A stretch of 5,687 nucleotides of DNA from a virus. Its lineage: Duplodnaviria; Heunggongvirae; Uroviricota; Caudoviricetes. Below are positions 2 to 5,687 of the stretch, piece by piece. A model generated the notes under the pieces. That model made no database searches and was not told the origin of the DNA. It was given only the letters and a program-made list of their open reading frames with translations. Where the stretch lies: the IMG/VR virus record IMGVR_UViG_2713896768_000015. One strand, given 5' to 3'. Position numbers and translations under genes: made by a program. How positions within the stretch are numbered: position 1 is the stretch's first letter; each line of letters begins with the position of its first letter.

Positions 2-946
2 GCTTACAAAAACTTCTTCCGGAAGCGGGCTGCTTTTCCCCGATTCAAAAAGCGGGGACAGAATGATGCATTCCGCTACCCGCAGGGCGTTAAGCTCGAT
101 CAGGAAAACAGCCGTATTTTTCTGCCGAAACTGGGCTGGATGCGCTACCGGAATAGCCGTCAGGTCACGGGTGTTGTGAAAAATGTCACTGTCAGCCAGT
201 CCTGCGGTAAGTGGTACATCAGTATTCAGACAGAAAGTGAAGTATCCACTCCGGTTCACCCTTCAGCATCAATGGTCGGGCTGGATGCTGGCGTGGCTAA
301 ACTCGCCACGCTGTCAGATGGCACAGTCTTTGAGCCTGTAAACAGTTTTCAGAAAAACCAGAAGACGCTGGCGAGACTTCAGCGACAGTTAAGCCGCAAG
401 GTCAAATTCAGCAACAACTGGCAGAAGCAGAAACGCAAAATACAGCGACTGCATTCCCGTATCGCAAATATCCGCAGGGACTACCTTCATAAAGTCACAA
501 CGACCGTCAGCAAAAACCACGCAATGATAGTCATTGAGGATTTGAAGGTCAGCAACATGTCAAAGTCAGCAGCGGGTACGGTCAGCCAGCCGGGGCGCAA
601 TGTCCGGGCAAAATCAGGTTTAAACCGTTCGATACTGGATCAGGGCTGGTATGAAATGCGCCGCCAGCTTGAGTACAAGCAGCTCTGGCGTGGCGGTCAG
701 GTGCTTGCTGTTCCGCCAGCGTACACAAGCCAGCGTTGCGCGTGCTGTGGTCATACAGCGAAAGAAAACCGCCTGTCACAAAGTAAATTCGTGTGTCGGG
801 CTTGTGGATATACAGCGAACGCCGATGTAAACGGCGCTCGTAACATTTTAGCGGCGGGGCACGCCGTGCTTGCCTGTGGAGGGATGGTGCAGTCAGACCG
901 CCCGTTGAAGCAGGAACCCTCCGAAATGATTCAGGCGACAGCCTGA
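2..946 (+). CDS. tnpB: IS200/IS605-family TnpB (OrfB) transposon-associated RNA-guided nuclease, 5'-truncated by the window edge (C-terminal 314 aa visible)
   Basis: The open frame runs from position 2 with no stop until TGA at 944-946 (the ORF track starts at the first Met, 140). RuvC-like motifs are present: GLDAG (Asp at 284-286), IVIEDL (Glu at 536-538) and [11 protein letters not shown] (Asp at 824-826). A C-x2-C...C-x2-C zinc finger (QRCACCGH...FVCRACG) precedes the last RuvC motif. This is the typical TnpB C-terminal architecture. Confidence 0.9.
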
Positions 947-1030
947 ACATAGCAGGAATCCACACCCCGAAGAGCGTGGAGGATGTCACGCTGCCTCTTT
1001 AATGTTGGCGGCTATCCATGCCGCCGTGTG
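800..1030 (+). ncRNA. Candidate omega-RNA (right-end RNA) locus for TnpB; boundaries approximate
   Basis: Established knowledge: TnpB guide RNAs are transcribed from the 3' end of tnpB through the IS right end, with the guide taken from the flanking DNA. Nothing in the sequence lets me place the scaffold precisely; only the hairpins at 973-992 and 1007-1025 are seen. Confidence 0.25.
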
Positions 1031-1351
1031 CTGTTTAACCTGGTCCAGGTCGATGTATGTGCCAACATATTGACTCAAGTCCTGTAACGTACCGATAAAT
1101 GCATCAGTGCTCTGATCGACGAATTTATCAGCCAGGAAATCAGCAACCAGTTTTGGCACACCATCATGTACCGAAGGTTGTTTTTCCTCGCCACTACTGC
1201 CGCCGGACGCGCCGTACCCCATCTGTTGCATGATCTGGTCAATTTCATCGCTGATATCCAGCAACTCCATGCCACTCGCGGTAGCCGCTTTGGATATCAG
1301 AGCATCCAACTTATCGCTGAGATCCATTAACTCAATAGCTGATAGTGTCAT
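986..1351 (-). CDS. ddrA: Acidic 121-aa protein, last gene of the operon; positional equivalent of P1 DdrA (assignment by position only)
   Basis: The ATG at 1351-1349 overlaps the upstream gene's TGA (ATGA at 1348-1351), indicating translational coupling. The protein is Asp/Glu-rich with a Gly/Ser linker (GYGASGGSSGEE). The name rests on operon position and my recollection of P1, not on alignment. Confidence 0.55.
   Translation of the reverse strand: MTLSAIELMDLSDKLDALISKAATASGMELLDISDEIDQIMQQMGYGASGGSSGEEKQPSVHDGVPKLVADFLADKFVDQSTDAFIGTLQDLSQYVGTYIDLDQVKQHTAAWIAANIKEAA
1007..1025. other. Perfect 6-bp GC stem (GGCGGC / GCCGCC) with 7-nt loop
   Basis: Read directly: ggcggc (1007-1012), tatccat, gccgcc (1020-1025). 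It lies inside the last codons of the convergent 121-aa gene. Possible IS subterminal hairpin, omega-RNA element or transcript-end structure. No downstream U-run, so not a classic intrinsic terminator. Confidence 0.3.
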
Positions 1352-3267
1352 GCCGCTACCCCCGCTTTCTGGATTGCTACCAGCAGATCAGCCAGGTGGC
1401 GAGCAGCGCCATTAACCAGCTCTTCGTTTTCCTCAAAACGCCCGGCAGCCTGAAGGGCTGCAATCGCTTCCCGGACATTGCCCCGGGCGTTACGGATCTC
1501 CGCCATGTCAGTGCTTTGCATATCCATCACGTTATTGAGATATTCAATGGCTTTATTAGCCTCTGCATCTGCTTCGCTAACCGTTTCATCAGGCTGTGCC
1601 GGGGCCGGTTCTGGCTGAGTAATCTCACCGACTTCGGCCTGCAATGCATTGATCATGCTCTGCACCATTTTCTCGGTGCCAGCGCCCCCCGGAAACGCAA
1701 TATTGGGGAAAGTTTTTTGAAACTGAGTCTTCAGCATTACGCGGAACTCGTCTGGTGAGCTGGTGGCCAGCTCCAGAGCTTTTTGTGCATATTTGCCAAA
1801 CGGACCATTAGTAAGTGTCTTCGCCAGGAAGTCGAAAGAATCCTCGCGAGGCAATAACTTCAGGTCGTACTCACTCATTTGCTGATCAGAAAGCGGGGTA
1901 TCGTAAGTAGCAATGCCGTAGCGTGCATATTCATAATACGGGTCACCGTCATCAGGGCGCGGCAGAATTGCTTTGTTACCTTCAGGTATCGCGCCAGGGG
2001 CCGCCGGACGCATTTGCAGGGCATATCGATATGCACCTACAGAGACTTCTGGTTCAGGCGAAGAGCTACCGGTATCCTCCGCTGGTTCAGGTTCGACGTT
2101 TTCCGGTTTATGTTCTTCTGGTTGGACCAGATATTCCGATACATTACCCGCTTTATAGGCTTTAAACAGCTTGCCGAGCGCATCCGCCATGTCCACACCC
2201 TGTATGGATTTAGCCTTGATCATGTACACGCTGCCATCCGAATCGGTTAACTGGATATACCCTTCGCCGTCCCCAATGAATTGCTTCATTGATGCACCAT
2301 TACTGAGCGTCGCTTCCCCGTCCATATGCATACGATTTTTGATACTGGCAAGGCGATCCGTCAGCGCGCGAGAGTGTCCACCAGTCATCCCCGCTGGAGC
2401 AATGGTATCGCGCCCACCAGTGCGATTGAGCTGATCAATCTCCGTCTGCAAACGCTCATTCTCTTCATAAAGAGAATCCGCTTCCGATGCAACAGCGTTA
2501 ATTTTCTGCTCCAGATCTGCCTTCTGCCCTTCTACCGCTGCCACCTGATCCGCGAGGTCGCTCATGGCATCCTCTTTCTGGTCACTGTCAGCCTGTAGTT
2601 GGGTTATTTCATCAACAAGGGCTTTTTTCTTCTTCTGCGCACGCTGGAATTTTGCCGAGTTTTTCTCTGCAAGGTTGGCAAGTTTCATGGTGACCTGCGC
2701 CAGCGTCATATCACGTCCACTCATCGGAGCAACGGTGTGAGTAACGTCTTTTTTATTCAGTAAGAACTGGAAAGCAACCAGCGTATCGCTATTGGTGATC
2801 CGGTTTTCCGCTGTCGGGCTATGAAACAGAATGCTGATAGTCTGACCATCACTGAGCGGAATAATGGCTGGCAGGACTGGCAGCCCGTTAACGTTACGTG
2901 CCCGGCCAATTTCAGCGCCGCCGATCGCGCGCGCGCCGCTCTGGGCCACATCCCCCGTTTTATCACTCCCCGCAGATATTCCGGTACCATTCAGCTTCTG
3001 GTTCAATGCCCGGACAAATGCCTGCATGGTCCGGTGTAACTGCAAACGAGTAGAACTAATCGCCTCCAGTAAATCCGTAGCACACCAGTGGATCGGCGTG
3101 TCATAGAAGAACGTAGCCTCGATTTCTTCCAGGGTGTTGGATTCCGTCATCAGATAGCGGTCCTCACCGGCCATTAATGCGCGATATTCATCATCAGTCA
3201 CCGGCGGGGGAAGCACGTCAAGCCCCGGCTTAATCGTCACCCCTTTATTGATATTGAACTGTTCCAT
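1348..3267 (-). CDS. darA: DarA-like capsid antirestriction (defence against restriction) protein, 639 aa
   Basis: Start ATG at 3267 with AGGAA 6 nt upstream, 1 nt after the upstream gene's stop. The N-terminal ~210 aa share a domain with the preceding 200-aa protein (LxDGQxIxI ... KNSAKFQ). A coiled-coil-like charged segment (~aa 205-285) and two acidic Pro/Glu-rich linkers follow. Size and context match P1 DarA as I recall it. Confidence 0.8.
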   Translation of the reverse strand: MEQFNINKGVTIKPGLDVLPPPVTDDEYRALMAGEDRYLMTESNTLEEIEATFFYDTPIHWCATDLLEAISSTRLQLHRTMQAFVRALNQKLNGTGISAGSDKTGDVAQSGARAIGGAEIGRARNVNGLPVLPAIIPLSDGQTISILFHSPTAENRITNSDTLVAFQFLLNKKDVTHTVAPMSGRDMTLAQVTMKLANLAEKNSAKFQRAQKKKKALVDEITQLQADSDQKEDAMSDLADQVAAVEGQKADLEQKINAVASEADSLYEENERLQTEIDQLNRTGGRDTIAPAGMTGGHSRALTDRLASIKNRMHMDGEATLSNGASMKQFIGDGEGYIQLTDSDGSVYMIKAKSIQGVDMADALGKLFKAYKAGNVSEYLVQPEEHKPENVEPEPAEDTGSSSPEPEVSVGAYRYALQMRPAAPGAIPEGNKAILPRPDDGDPYYEYARYGIATYDTPLSDQQMSEYDLKLLPREDSFDFLAKTLTNGPFGKYAQKALELATSSPDEFRVMLKTQFQKTFPNIAFPGGAGTEKMVQSMINALQAEVGEITQPEPAPAQPDETVSEADAEANKAIEYLNNVMDMQSTDMAEIRNARGNVREAIAALQAAGRFEENEELVNGAARHLADLLVAIQKAGVAA

Positions 3268-3268
3268 G

Positions 3269-3871
3269 TTAATTTCCTGCTTTCAGTTGCTTAAGACGGC
3301 GTTTGAGTTCGCCATTTCGGGCCTTTTCGTTATTGAGTCGGCCTGTCTCCTTATCCAGCTTCGCCCGCAAATCAGTGATCTGCTGTTGATTGAAAGACAC
3401 CGAGTTCTGAGCTGATTTATAAGCGGCAACCACCTGAGCATTCCGCTGTTTTGCCTCTTGCAGGCGCTGAAAGTTGGATTTTACTGCCGGTTTCTTGTCT
3501 ACCGGATTGGCAACACGTTTCGCTTTGGCGATCAGTGATTTCTGGAATTTTGCGGAGTTTTTGCGGGCCGCTTGCCCCATGACGGTACCAAGCGTCTTGA
3601 TATCCGGCGACTGAGCGTTAGGAATAGCTTTTCCATTCAGCCTCACAGACGATATATCGCCAGTATCGTTTACCTGTATGGCAAGAATTTGTCCGTCGTT
3701 AAGAACCAGCTTTGCGGTTTTAACTTTAACGCCATCTTTCGTTGTTGCGCGGTTGCTGGAGTCAACCTCAATTACCGTAACACCGGTTTTATTGATCGTC
3801 GCGATAAGGGATTTCAGCCCCCTTTCATTAACCTGGTCAAAATCGACCGTTGCATACTTATTTTTCGTCAT
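3269..3871 (-). CDS. hdf: Hdf-like protein (homologue of the DarA N-terminal fragment), ~200 aa
   Basis: It shares the motif block with the N-terminal region of the 639-aa protein, including a 21-nt stretch identical at 20 positions (3542-3562 versus 2644-2664, encoding KNSAKFQ). The likely start is the second ATG (3871-3869), which has AGGA 8 nt upstream. The ORF-track start at 3880 has no usable spacing. The C-terminal half is basic and coiled-coil-like. Confidence 0.75.
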   Translation of the reverse strand: MTKNKYATVDFDQVNERGLKSLIATINKTGVTVIEVDSSNRATTKDGVKVKTAKLVLNDGQILAIQVNDTGDISSVRLNGKAIPNAQSPDIKTLGTVMGQAARKNSAKFQKSLIAKAKRVANPVDKKPAVKSNFQRLQEAKQRNAQVVAAYKSAQNSVSFNQQQITDLRAKLDKETGRLNNEKARNGELKRRLKQLKAGN

Positions 3872-4301
3872 CTGACACATCCTGTGCGAGATTTATTACG
3901 TAACTTCTGCGGATTTGCTGAGTAACAGGGAAAATCCGATACAACGGGTTAATGAACGAGTCGCCATGCGTAACCATGACGTTGAAATGCCACAGTCGTT
4001 CTCCTTTACCCATATATTCAGTGGGTATGTACAACCATTCACTGTTTTCGCCCTGTTCAGCCGACGTCAGACAACGTTGTTCGCCTTCAATCACTGTCGT
4101 TGGCTTCTGAACATCGCGGATCCAATATCTGACCGTTGCGCCGCGCAAAAACGGGAATTTAGACCGGTATTTGAACGGCACCCGGATGAAGCCCTGTTTA
4201 ATTTCCACATCACCAAGTTCTAAATGCGTGATGTCCTTGCGTTTTAGCAAATAGCGATCGGCTAAGGCTAACGCAAGAGCGCATACACCCCAGCCAATCA
4301 T
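3858..4301 (-). CDS. lydB: LydB-like protein (holin antagonist in P1), 147 aa
   Basis: The ATG at 4301-4299 overlaps the upstream holin gene's TGA (ATGA at 4298-4301), with GGGAGG 6 nt upstream. Hydrophobic N-terminus (MIGWGVCALALALA). Size and position match P1 lydB as I recall it. Confidence 0.7.
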   Translation of the reverse strand: MIGWGVCALALALADRYLLKRKDITHLELGDVEIKQGFIRVPFKYRSKFPFLRGATVRYWIRDVQKPTTVIEGEQRCLTSAEQGENSEWLYIPTEYMGKGERLWHFNVMVTHGDSFINPLYRIFPVTQQIRRSYVINLAQDVSDDEK

Positions 4302-4627
4302 TTCCCACCTCCCTTTTTCACCAAACTTGTAAGAACATTCAGAATGCTATCGATATTCACTCGTTTCATCCCTGAAATCACCTCATGACCGTTATTGCTG
4401 GCTATCGTTACCATTAAGTACGTAATTGATAACTCCCAGCCTTCGTGTTGCCCCAATAGGTACGCCACCGCGCCAGCTGTCACTGCAACAAAGATCTCCG
4501 TAACCAATCCCAACAAATTGCCAGACTGGCGACCGTCTCGGACATCCATCAGGAACGTGCCTATCCCACCAATTACTGAAAGCAGGAGCGCAATAGCAAC
4601 TGGAGCTAATTCCTGTGTGTCAAGCAC
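4298..4627 (-). CDS. lydA: LydA-like holin, 109 aa, three predicted transmembrane segments and a charged C-terminus
   Basis: GTG start at 4627-4625 with AGGAGG 6 nt upstream. Hydrophobic stretches LAPVAIALLLSVIGGIGTFL, LLGLVTEIFVAVTAGAVAYLL and LSITYLMVTIA, ending in KKGGGK. First gene of the coupled operon. Confidence 0.75.
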   Translation of the reverse strand: MLDTQELAPVAIALLLSVIGGIGTFLMDVRDGRQSGNLLGLVTEIFVAVTAGAVAYLLGQHEGWELSITYLMVTIASNNGHEVISGMKRVNIDSILNVLTSLVKKGGGK

Positions 4628-4633
4628 AAGTTC

Positions 4634-4653
4634 CCTCCTACGTTGTCAGGAGG
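4634..4653 (-). promoter_or_regulatory. Hairpin pairing the lydA Shine-Dalgarno (AGGAGG) with an upstream CCUCCU anti-SD
   Basis: On the minus-strand transcript: CCUCCU (4653-4648), 8-nt loop, AGGAGG (4639-4634), then a 6-nt spacer and GUG. The six base pairs are four G-C and two A-U. Confidence 0.35.
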
Positions 4654-4694
4654 TAATGGTATGCAAAGTAACTTCTCAACCGGTCATTTGTTGC

Positions 4695-4934
4695 TTAAGA
4701 GGCATTTCTATTGAGGTACGAATCGATAAGCCTTTGTAACCTTTCAAAAATGAGCCTGTTATTGATGCTGCAAATAAGAGTCACGCAATTCTGAAGACTT
4801 TCATCCATACCCTTATATTCCGCGAAATACATGCCTATAAAGCCTGCAAGTACGGCAGCAATACACTCGGCCATCAATTGCCTGCATGACGCTTCGTAAC
4901 GTTTTTCACGAACCCCATTCAGAAACGAATGCAC
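4695..4934 (-). CDS. Hypothetical small protein (79 aa; possibly 59 aa from an internal Met at 4874) with one hydrophobic helix
   Basis: ORF in an AT-rich spacer between the invertase and the holin gene. The GTG start has GGAGG only 1 nt upstream, which is poor spacing. The internal ATG at 4874-4872 has a weak AGG 6 nt upstream. Coding status is uncertain. Confidence 0.3.
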   Translation of the reverse strand: MHSFLNGVREKRYEASCRQLMAECIAAVLAGFIGMYFAEYKGMDESLQNCVTLICSINNRLIFERLQRLIDSYLNRNAS

Positions 4935-4958
4935 GCCTCCAAGGATGGTTATAAAAAA

Positions 4959-4984
4959 TATGGTTAAATCAAGGTTTAGGATTG
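4959..4984. other. Candidate invertase crossover site (cix/gix/hix-like 12-2-12 element) overlapping the invertase stop codon
   Basis: TATGGTTAAATC-AA-GGTTTAGGATTG. The right half matches the Din-family half-site pattern (reverse complement CAATCCTAAACC; compare hix TTATCAAAAACC and gix TTATCCAAAACC). The left half is weaker (TAAATC inner core). Confidence 0.4.
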
Positions 4985-5536
4985 AAATGATGACGCCGGA
5001 AACTTCTTATAAAGCGTGGAAACAGCCACATCATAGATGATTGCAACCTGCTTACGGGGGATGCCCTTCTCGAGCAATCGCCGCATTTGCTGCCATGTTT
5101 CTTCTTGGTATTTAGGCCGACGCCCACCTATACGACCTTCTGCGCGAGCTGCATCAAGTCCAGCGCGTGTACGTTCAACGATAAGCTCACGTTCCATTTC
5201 TGCCAGCGCCCCCATTACGTGAAAGAAAAAACGCCCCATTGGTGTACTGGTGTCGATGGAGTCAGTGAGACTCCGGAAGTTAATGCCTCTGTCACGCAGC
5301 TCTTCCACCAGCACAACTAAGTGACGCATGCTGCGCCCAAGACGATCTAACTTCCATACGACTAGGGTGTCACCTCTGGAAAGCATACGGAGAACCTTTT
5401 TTAACCCAGGGCGTTCAGCCTTTTTGCCGCTCGCCTTGTCCTCAAAAATTAGCTCACATCCTGCGCTTTCAAGGGCATTTCGTTGTAAAGCAGTGTTTTG
5501 TTCATTTGTTGATACGCGTACATAGCCAATTAGCAT
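4976..5536 (-). CDS. cin: Serine DNA invertase of the Gin/Cin/Hin/Pin (Din) family, 186 aa
   Basis: N-terminal MLIGYVRVSTNEQ with the catalytic Ser at residue 9, a resolvase/invertase catalytic domain (VWKLDRLGRS, MGRFFFHVMGALAEMERELI) and a C-terminal helix-turn-helix (GIPRKQVAIIYDVAVSTLYKKF). GGTGA lies 8 nt upstream of the ATG. The symbol cin is chosen from the P1-like context; family membership is near certain, the specific orthologue is not. Confidence 0.92.
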   Translation of the reverse strand: MLIGYVRVSTNEQNTALQRNALESAGCELIFEDKASGKKAERPGLKKVLRMLSRGDTLVVWKLDRLGRSMRHLVVLVEELRDRGINFRSLTDSIDTSTPMGRFFFHVMGALAEMERELIVERTRAGLDAARAEGRIGGRRPKYQEETWQQMRRLLEKGIPRKQVAIIYDVAVSTLYKKFPASSFQS

Positions 5537-5655
5537 ATTTTCTGCTCACCATAGTTATTCATAGCAAGCTGCGGATTTTAATTAACAGAAACCAGTGTGT
5601 GTGGAAATCACAAAGTGCATACCGTGCCCCAATGATGTTTTATTGAAAAGCGGGG

Positions 5656-5681
5656 TTACTTTAATGTTTGGTTTAAGAGAA
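5656..5681. other. Candidate crossover site upstream of the invertase gene (cixL-like), at the window edge
   Basis: TTACTTTAATGT-TT-GGTTTAAGAGAA. The distal half (reverse complement TTCTCTTAAACC) is a strong Din-family half-site; the invertase-proximal half is degenerate. It sits about 120-145 bp upstream of the invertase ATG, where gix/cix sites overlap invertase promoters. Confidence 0.4.
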
Positions 5682-5687
5682 CTTGGC

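Follow-up and report, generated by a model that had tools for sequence, protein, structure and literature searches.

The window, by which we mean the whole stretch of 5,687 nt analysed here (IMG/VR record IMGVR_UViG_2713896768_000015), is part of a P1-like E. coli phage-plasmid, and in megablast searches it groups with the phage-plasmids P1, SJ46, and RCS47. Its genes, assigned from open reading frames (ORFs) and Pfam matches, are as follows.

140-946, plus strand: insQ, a truncated IS200/IS605-type tnpB
986-1351, minus strand: ddrA
1348-3267, minus strand: darA
3269-3880, minus strand: hdf
3858-4301, minus strand: lydB
4298-4627, minus strand: lydA
4695-4934, minus strand: lydC (putative holin), as the ORF that starts at a GTG
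4976-5536, minus strand: cin, serine DNA invertase of 186 aa

The window Cin is identical to P1 Cin at 186 of 186 residues and contains an N-terminal resolvase catalytic domain (PF00239, 4.6e-51) and a C-terminal HTH_7 domain (PF02796, 1.9e-18). By this domain make-up the invertase is a small serine recombinase, as in the Din-family Cin/cix system of P1. At the other end of the window, positions 1-989 (insQ, an IS200/IS605-type tnpB, next to ddrA) are extra relative to P1, and the same is seen in SJ46 and RCS47. Between relatives that elsewhere differ by 0-2 nt over 4 kb, the insQ allele varies by 13-34 nt per kb, which suggests exchange between IS copies or a collapsed multi-copy assembly. 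The window starts inside the insQ IS and stops 19 nt into the repeat of the C segment (see below), and in this it resembles a repeat-bounded short-read contig.

A lopsided crossover site upstream of cin

The preliminary description of this DNA had placed a candidate Din-type crossover site between the 5' end of cin and the right edge of the window, with a strong half-site facing away from the invertase and a degenerate half-site facing it.

5656-5681: right hybrid crossover site, with the weak half at 5656-5667, the core TT at 5668-5669, and the strong half at 5670-5681

The plus strand of this element reads TTACTTTAATGT TT GGTTTAAGAGAA. We scored it with a 12-bp half-site matrix built from 16 non-cix Din-family half-sites (hix, gix, pix, mix, and bix; table 3 of PMC3241671). 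The cin-distal half, taken as the reverse complement of 5670-5681 (TTCTCTTAAACC), scores 13.55 bits, as good as any known site, and is the best 12-mer on both strands of the whole window. The cin-proximal half at 5656-5667 (TTACTTTAATGT), at -1.2 bits, is at the level of chance: 4.8% of the 12-mers in the window score as high. The complete element is the highest-scoring 26-mer of the window, and its spacing and core (TT/AA) are those of a 26-bp Din site. The lopsided pattern is not a chance match. The described polarity of the halves is borne out by these scores, and the element is in all likelihood a genuine Din-type site. The explanation offered for the degenerate half, that it lies at a border with unique DNA, fails, since natural cix border halves score 9.1 bits (cin-3' half) and 13.0 bits (Sc-side half) in comparison with -1.2 bits at 5656-5667. 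The half is weak because it is derived from a secondary site (site B) at the lydC start, as described in the next section. A lopsided Din-type site can be the scar of a past secondary-site event and not a native site.

Two regulatory features of cin were located by comparison with the P1 record AF234172.

5447-5518: recombinational enhancer (sis), inside the cin coding region, by homology to the P1 enhancer
5575-5607, minus strand: counterpart of the predicted P1 promoter P1cin, with -35 TTTCCA at 5602-5607 and -10 TAAAAT at 5575-5580, inside the inverted cassette

The enhancer had been expected at 5380-5536, and the counterpart of the P1 enhancer (AF234172 31678-31749) falls within these limits, with 70 of 72 bases identical. 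A cis enhancer with putative Fis sites is thus assigned by homology to the annotated P1 element. Upstream of cin, a scan for consensus promoters gave none on the minus strand, and the promoters predicted in the P1 record were therefore mapped instead. The predicted cin promoter lies ~50 bp from 5656-5681, so it does not overlap the crossover site.

The promoter region also contains a conserved element with a Din-like half-site at 5582-5607 (TTAACAGAAACC AG TGTGTGTGGAAA, 9.2 bits), which is inside the inverted cassette, overlaps the -35 hexamer, and ends 2 bp short of the -10 hexamer. Its P1 version (record positions 31589-31614, TTAACAAAAACC) scores 13.5 bits. As a crossover point the element was rejected: it is intact, and its core is AG. 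It is present in all but two (L019 and L021) of 29 P1-like loci, and it may serve in Cin autoregulation or be a pseudo-cix site. It may be the pseudo-site 'cixPp' of the older literature. No relevant paper on cixPp, cixQ, or quasi-cix sites was found in the literature searched.

Orientation of cin in relatives and the reciprocal junctions

In the P1 record AF234172, lydC (minus strand) and cin (plus strand) are divergent. The cin gene occupies 31660-32220 with the enhancer inside it, cixL (32215-32234, crossover at 32224/32225) lies over the cin stop codon, the C segment extends from 32225 to 36480, and cixR is found at 36471-36490. P1 cin is transcribed towards the C segment, with cixL at its 3' end. 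By this annotation the P1 site beside the invertase is therefore at the 3' end of the gene and not at its promoter; the earlier statement that the P1 invertase promoter overlaps the crossover site has to be withdrawn, cixL overlapping the cin stop codon instead.

The window differs from this arrangement. Positions 4964 to 5644 or 5676 match P1, SJ46, and all well-matching plasmids and complete E. coli genomes on the strand opposite to that of the dar/lyd block, and the plasmids in which the cin block is opposite in strand to the dar/lyd block number in the hundreds. Among the relatives examined, only L013 has cin in the orientation of the window; P1 and all the others carry it the other way round. 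L013 is a 97.7-kb E. coli contig (GCA_001039215.2) that was found only by exact look-up of DarA. The P1-type arrangement is present in the closest plasmid, p15648-1 (L002), and in the DarA-identical contigs L014-L018, L020, and L022.

In the relatives the parental cixL reads TTCTCTTAAACC AA GGTTTAGGATTG, and a second sequence, the parental site B, reads TTACTTTAATGT TT GATTTAACCATA. Intact copies of both are found in L002, L007, L008, L014-L018, L020, and L022. Site B covers the lydC start codon, with the ATG in its left half and the core TT in codon 2. Its half-sites are very poor (-1.2 and -4.2 bits in the matrix); it could not have been predicted from its sequence and is a putative Cin-bound site. 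The canonical cixL is absent from the window: the cin-stop half at 4973-4984 joins lydC-side sequence, and the C-segment half at 5670-5681 joins sequence upstream of cin.

4959-4984: left hybrid crossover site, made of TATGGTTAAATC (site B, lydC side), core AA at 4971-4972, and GGTTTAGGATTG (cin-stop half of cixL)

The right junction at 5656-5681 consists in turn of the promoter-side half of site B and the C-segment half of cixL, and the two elements are exact reciprocal hybrids of cixL and site B. When L014, L015, L020, and L022 were inverted in silico at the core dinucleotides, the product matched window 4700-5687 with 0 mismatches in 988 positions; the same operation on L002 left 6 mismatches. 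The exchange point is limited to the 3 shared bases CAA, core included. Read on one strand, the cores are AA in cixL and TT in site B, that is, in the inverted orientation that inversion needs. The segment between them, a cassette of 697 bp, holds cin, its promoter, and its enhancer. Relatives with 0-2 differences from the window over 4 kb (one of them with 0 differences) are parental, and the inversion is therefore recent. We concluded that 5656-5681 is one joint of an inversion of the cin cassette and that it now bounds the C segment on the left; its position upstream of cin is due to the inverted state of the cassette.

One could instead read 5656-5681 as a native site upstream of the invertase, overlapping its promoter as in Mu, with an inner half that is degenerate because it lies in unique DNA. 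In Mu-type arrangements the 5' end of the invertase gene adjoins the invertible segment, and here too the site bounds the C segment, towards which its strong half points. However, the half of cixL that natively lies on the cin side (CAATCCTAAACC) and overlaps the stop codon of that gene sits at 4973-4984, where it is joined to lydC-side sequence. In every parental relative, among them the one that shows 0 differences over 4 kb, cixL is at the cin 3' end, and the predicted promoter at 5575-5607 is ~50 bp away. The reciprocal-hybrid structure contradicts a native site, and the database searches argue against an inverted form that is ancestral and widespread. We regard this reading as extremely unlikely.

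The exact exchange at the Cin cleavage dinucleotide, together with an intact Cin and an enhancer in cis, points to secondary-site recombination by the invertase. We put at roughly 0.85 the probability that the cassette was flipped, almost certainly by Cin itself, through recombination of cixL with site B, and that the lopsided site is the resulting hybrid joint. The parental order would have been lydC, site B, cin promoter, cin with its enhancer, cixL, C segment, and cixR. The inverted sites cixL and B, which share the core AA/TT, would have been paired by a Din-family invertase that was almost certainly Cin; both sites would then have been cut at the core and the strands exchanged, leaving the 697-bp cassette inverted. 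The joint at 5656-5681 would still bound the C segment of ~5.4 kb, with cixR ~5.4 kb past the right edge of the window. The hybrid site would probably still be able to support inversion of the C segment and re-inversion of the cassette; the outer half of the natural hixR scores 0.4 bits in the same matrix and provides a precedent for the function of such a lopsided site. In the window the enhancer is ~150 bp from the C-segment boundary site, versus ~475 bp in the parental arrangement.

An inversion of this kind might also arise without a site-specific recombinase, by microhomology or template switching between the inverted TTAAA(C/T)CAA matches, and the parental sites do match at 9 of 10 positions around the exchange point. 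RecA-dependent recombination needs far more than an imperfect match of 10 bp. Neither joint has gained or lost a base, the exchange being precise and conservative at both; its position in cixL is the dinucleotide annotated as the Cin cleavage point, and Cin and its enhancer are fully intact in cis, which makes such an origin highly improbable. Secondary-site recombination could also have been carried out in trans by another enzyme, for example Pin of e14 or a prophage invertase, supplied by the host or a co-resident element. Din-family invertases may cross-complement one another. For a prophage with a truncated invertase gene of its own, PMC4134206 argues that an invertase acted on it in trans. 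Here, however, Cin is encoded in cis, intact and identical to the functional P1 Cin, and nothing points to any other invertase, so that a different catalyst appears very unlikely; Cin is the probable catalyst of the inversion.

The C segment beyond the right edge and the genes at the junctions

What lies to the right of the window was examined in L013. This contig has both hybrid sites and matches window 752-5687, as its reverse complement, without a difference; the 34 differences between the two records are all in insQ. Two inverted repeats of 592 nt (2157-2748 and 7009-7600) are 99% complementary in this contig. A perfect cixR (TTATCCAATACC TT GGTTTAAGAGAA) is found at 2145-2170, inside the S tail-fibre gene (Phage_fiber_2). 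It shares its core with the hybrid site at 7587-7612, relative to which it is inverted and from which it is 5,442 bp away. Between the two sites are Sv/U/U'/Sv', both strands carrying Caudo_TAP genes for tail-fibre assembly, and an ORF of the Sv' type; this C segment is found flipped in L002 and L006.

5669-5687: beginning of the inverted repeat of the C segment (first 19 nt), the same sequence as the reverse complement of L013 7581-7599

The strong half and the 7 bases that follow it (5669-5687) are also the first 19 nt of the C-segment repeat in the relatives. The window itself includes 19 nt of the repeat, and its right flank would by the L013 sequence be a C segment of ~5.4 kb ending at cixR. 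The preliminary description had predicted an invertible tail-fibre segment just beyond the right edge and, within ~5 kb, a second site in inverted orientation, whose absence would have spoken against the idea. With the inverted cixR and the tail-fibre segment of L013 that prediction came true, and the objection of a missing partner falls away.

Assemblies often break in regions like this one, which adjoins an invertible segment and an inverted repeat of 592 nt, and the cassette might have been misoriented by the assembler; the contigs of many relatives stop at cixL, as the window stops 19 nt into the repeat. But the parental sites share ~9 bp, which is too little for such an error, the misjoin would be needed twice and reciprocally, and the junction is exactly at the cix core. 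The arrangement is, in addition, present in two records, the window and L013, with different insQ alleles. An assembly artefact is on this evidence exceedingly improbable.

The inversion changed the reading frames at both junctions.

4695-4958, minus strand: lydC body, severed from its ATG by the inversion, with the first remaining in-frame start (GTG 4932-4934) 15 codons in
5664-5687, plus strand: lydC ATG and codon 2 (ATG TTT, 5664-5669), fused in frame to a tail-fibre exon

lydC has lost its ATG and first codon, and no in-frame ATG, GTG, or TTG precedes the GTG at 4932-4934. The fusion ORF runs off the window and continues in L013 (7604-6036, minus strand) as a frame of 522 aa (MFGLRELGTSGEK...), in which the lydC start is followed by the Sv'-type variable exon of the tail fibre. 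This lydC-start/fibre fusion is a predicted ORF, and an in-frame join would occur by accident with a one-in-three chance. In its inverted orientation cin faces into lydC, lydA, lydB, hdf, and darA. The recombinase would thereby have flipped its own gene, decapitated a holin-like neighbour, and fused the start of that neighbour to a tail-fibre exon. In the public annotation of L013 the decapitated lydC (8286-8573) is entered as a protein of 95 aa (PBN76449.1) with a non-canonical ATC start inside the hybrid site. This call is an annotation artefact of the inversion, and annotation pipelines will mis-call lydC and the fibre exon in cin-inverted variants.

Distribution of the inverted form and comparison with known systems

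In INPHARED phages, PLSDB, and 5,426 complete E. coli genomes, no record is collinear with the window across the left junction. Exact-string scans of genome_contigs, viral_contigs, and metagenome_contigs gave 0 hits for each of the two hybrid junctions. The 79-aa GTG-started LydC, a 59-aa form, the I-started 95-aa form, and the 522-aa fusion are not on record; the only hybrid LydC on record is the M-started 95-aa PBN76449.1, from the single contig L013. LydC in its parental forms is recorded for thousands of contigs, site B in the parental arrangement is spanned in ~29 PLSDB plasmids (at least 90% identity), and the exact site B is found in 7 IMG/VR contigs. The inverted arrangement is seen in two records, the window and L013, which may come from one strain, and what is documented is therefore a single historical event. 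P1 itself was rejected as a reference for the junctions, its sequence at the position of site B being different and its core AC. That sequence reads TATTGTGAAATC AC ACATAACTATTT (L001 716-741, P1 record 31515-31540), and both halves are worse than those of site B. With this core and these halves, reference P1 is unlikely to undergo the inversion of the cin cassette. Among the P1-like lineages, only the sub-lineage of the window offers a site B core that is, by its sequence, predicted to be compatible with cixL.

The inversion of the cin cassette is a rare but otherwise ordinary by-product of the textbook P1 Cin/cix system. The system itself is known, and the window adds a natural case of secondary-site recombination, probably by Cin. 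Cin is known to use secondary crossover sites on rare occasions (Arber, PMC4270481), which is the subject given for two further papers (Iida and Hiestand-Nauer, 1986, 1987) where PMC4134206 cites them. The window provides a natural, base-pair-exact example of the laboratory finding of the Arber group that the invertase occasionally uses a weak secondary site. As in the quasi-site recombination studied by Iida and co-workers in the 1980s (PMC4270481), a true cix recombined with a poor site sharing the core dinucleotide and gave precise hybrid products, and such events can fuse genes (Arber, PMC4270481). The present case is from a natural P1-like plasmid, whereas those were selected in the laboratory; and since the secondary site is 697 bp from cixL, the recombinase gene itself was inverted, unlike in the laboratory cases.

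With P1 Cin/cix the locus shares an identical Cin, 70 of 72 enhancer bases, an identical cixR, an identical C-segment half of cixL, inverted repeats of ~0.6 kb, alternative Sv/U and Sv'/U' tail-fibre modules, and the neighbourhood of darA, hdf, lydB, lydA, and lydC. It differs from P1 in that the C segment borders on the 5' end of cin and not on the stop codon, one half of the left boundary site is non-cix, lydC is severed from its ATG, the C segment of ~5.4 kb has partly different content, and insQ (TnpB) is inserted beside ddrA. In the Hin/hix system of Salmonella the invertase gene and enhancer are likewise within the inverted segment, and hixR is lopsided yet works. Hin, however, is an evolved and regulated switch, whereas the inversion of the cin cassette looks like a rare by-product and the C segment is the switch in use. 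Min of p15B is similar in having more than two Din-type sites per invertase, so that several inversions are possible, but there six good mix sites shuffle tail-fibre exons, whereas at the present locus sites three and four, being weak or hybrid, shuffle no fibre exons.

We consider it very unlikely that the cin cassette is a genuine, reversible second switch in which Cin turns its own gene back and forth by way of site B and the hybrid sites. If it were, the flipped state would silence the putative holin gene lydC and provide a start codon for a tail-fibre tip that stands by itself, namely the 522-aa ORF. Transcription of cin would be led into the lyd/dar operon, and inversion of the C segment would be weakened or locked. 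The locus would then show phase variation of a recombinase locus, confined to the sub-lineage with an AA-core site B.

Two relatives show other changes at this locus. L005 (GCA_041118595.1, at ~10553) encodes an identical Cin, but cixL cannot be recognised at the stop codon of its cin gene, and the segment that precedes cixR is much shorter; it may represent a deletion or a variant site. In L021 (1-1100, Logan SRR30349326_136) a Min/p15B-type invertase of 190 aa replaces most of cin, with a mix-like site before the invertase (TTCCCCTAAACC AA CGTTTTAGTCTT) and a cin 5' remnant that matches window 5360-5639 at 88% identity. The replacement resembles the case of pJIE250-3 described in PMC6906374.
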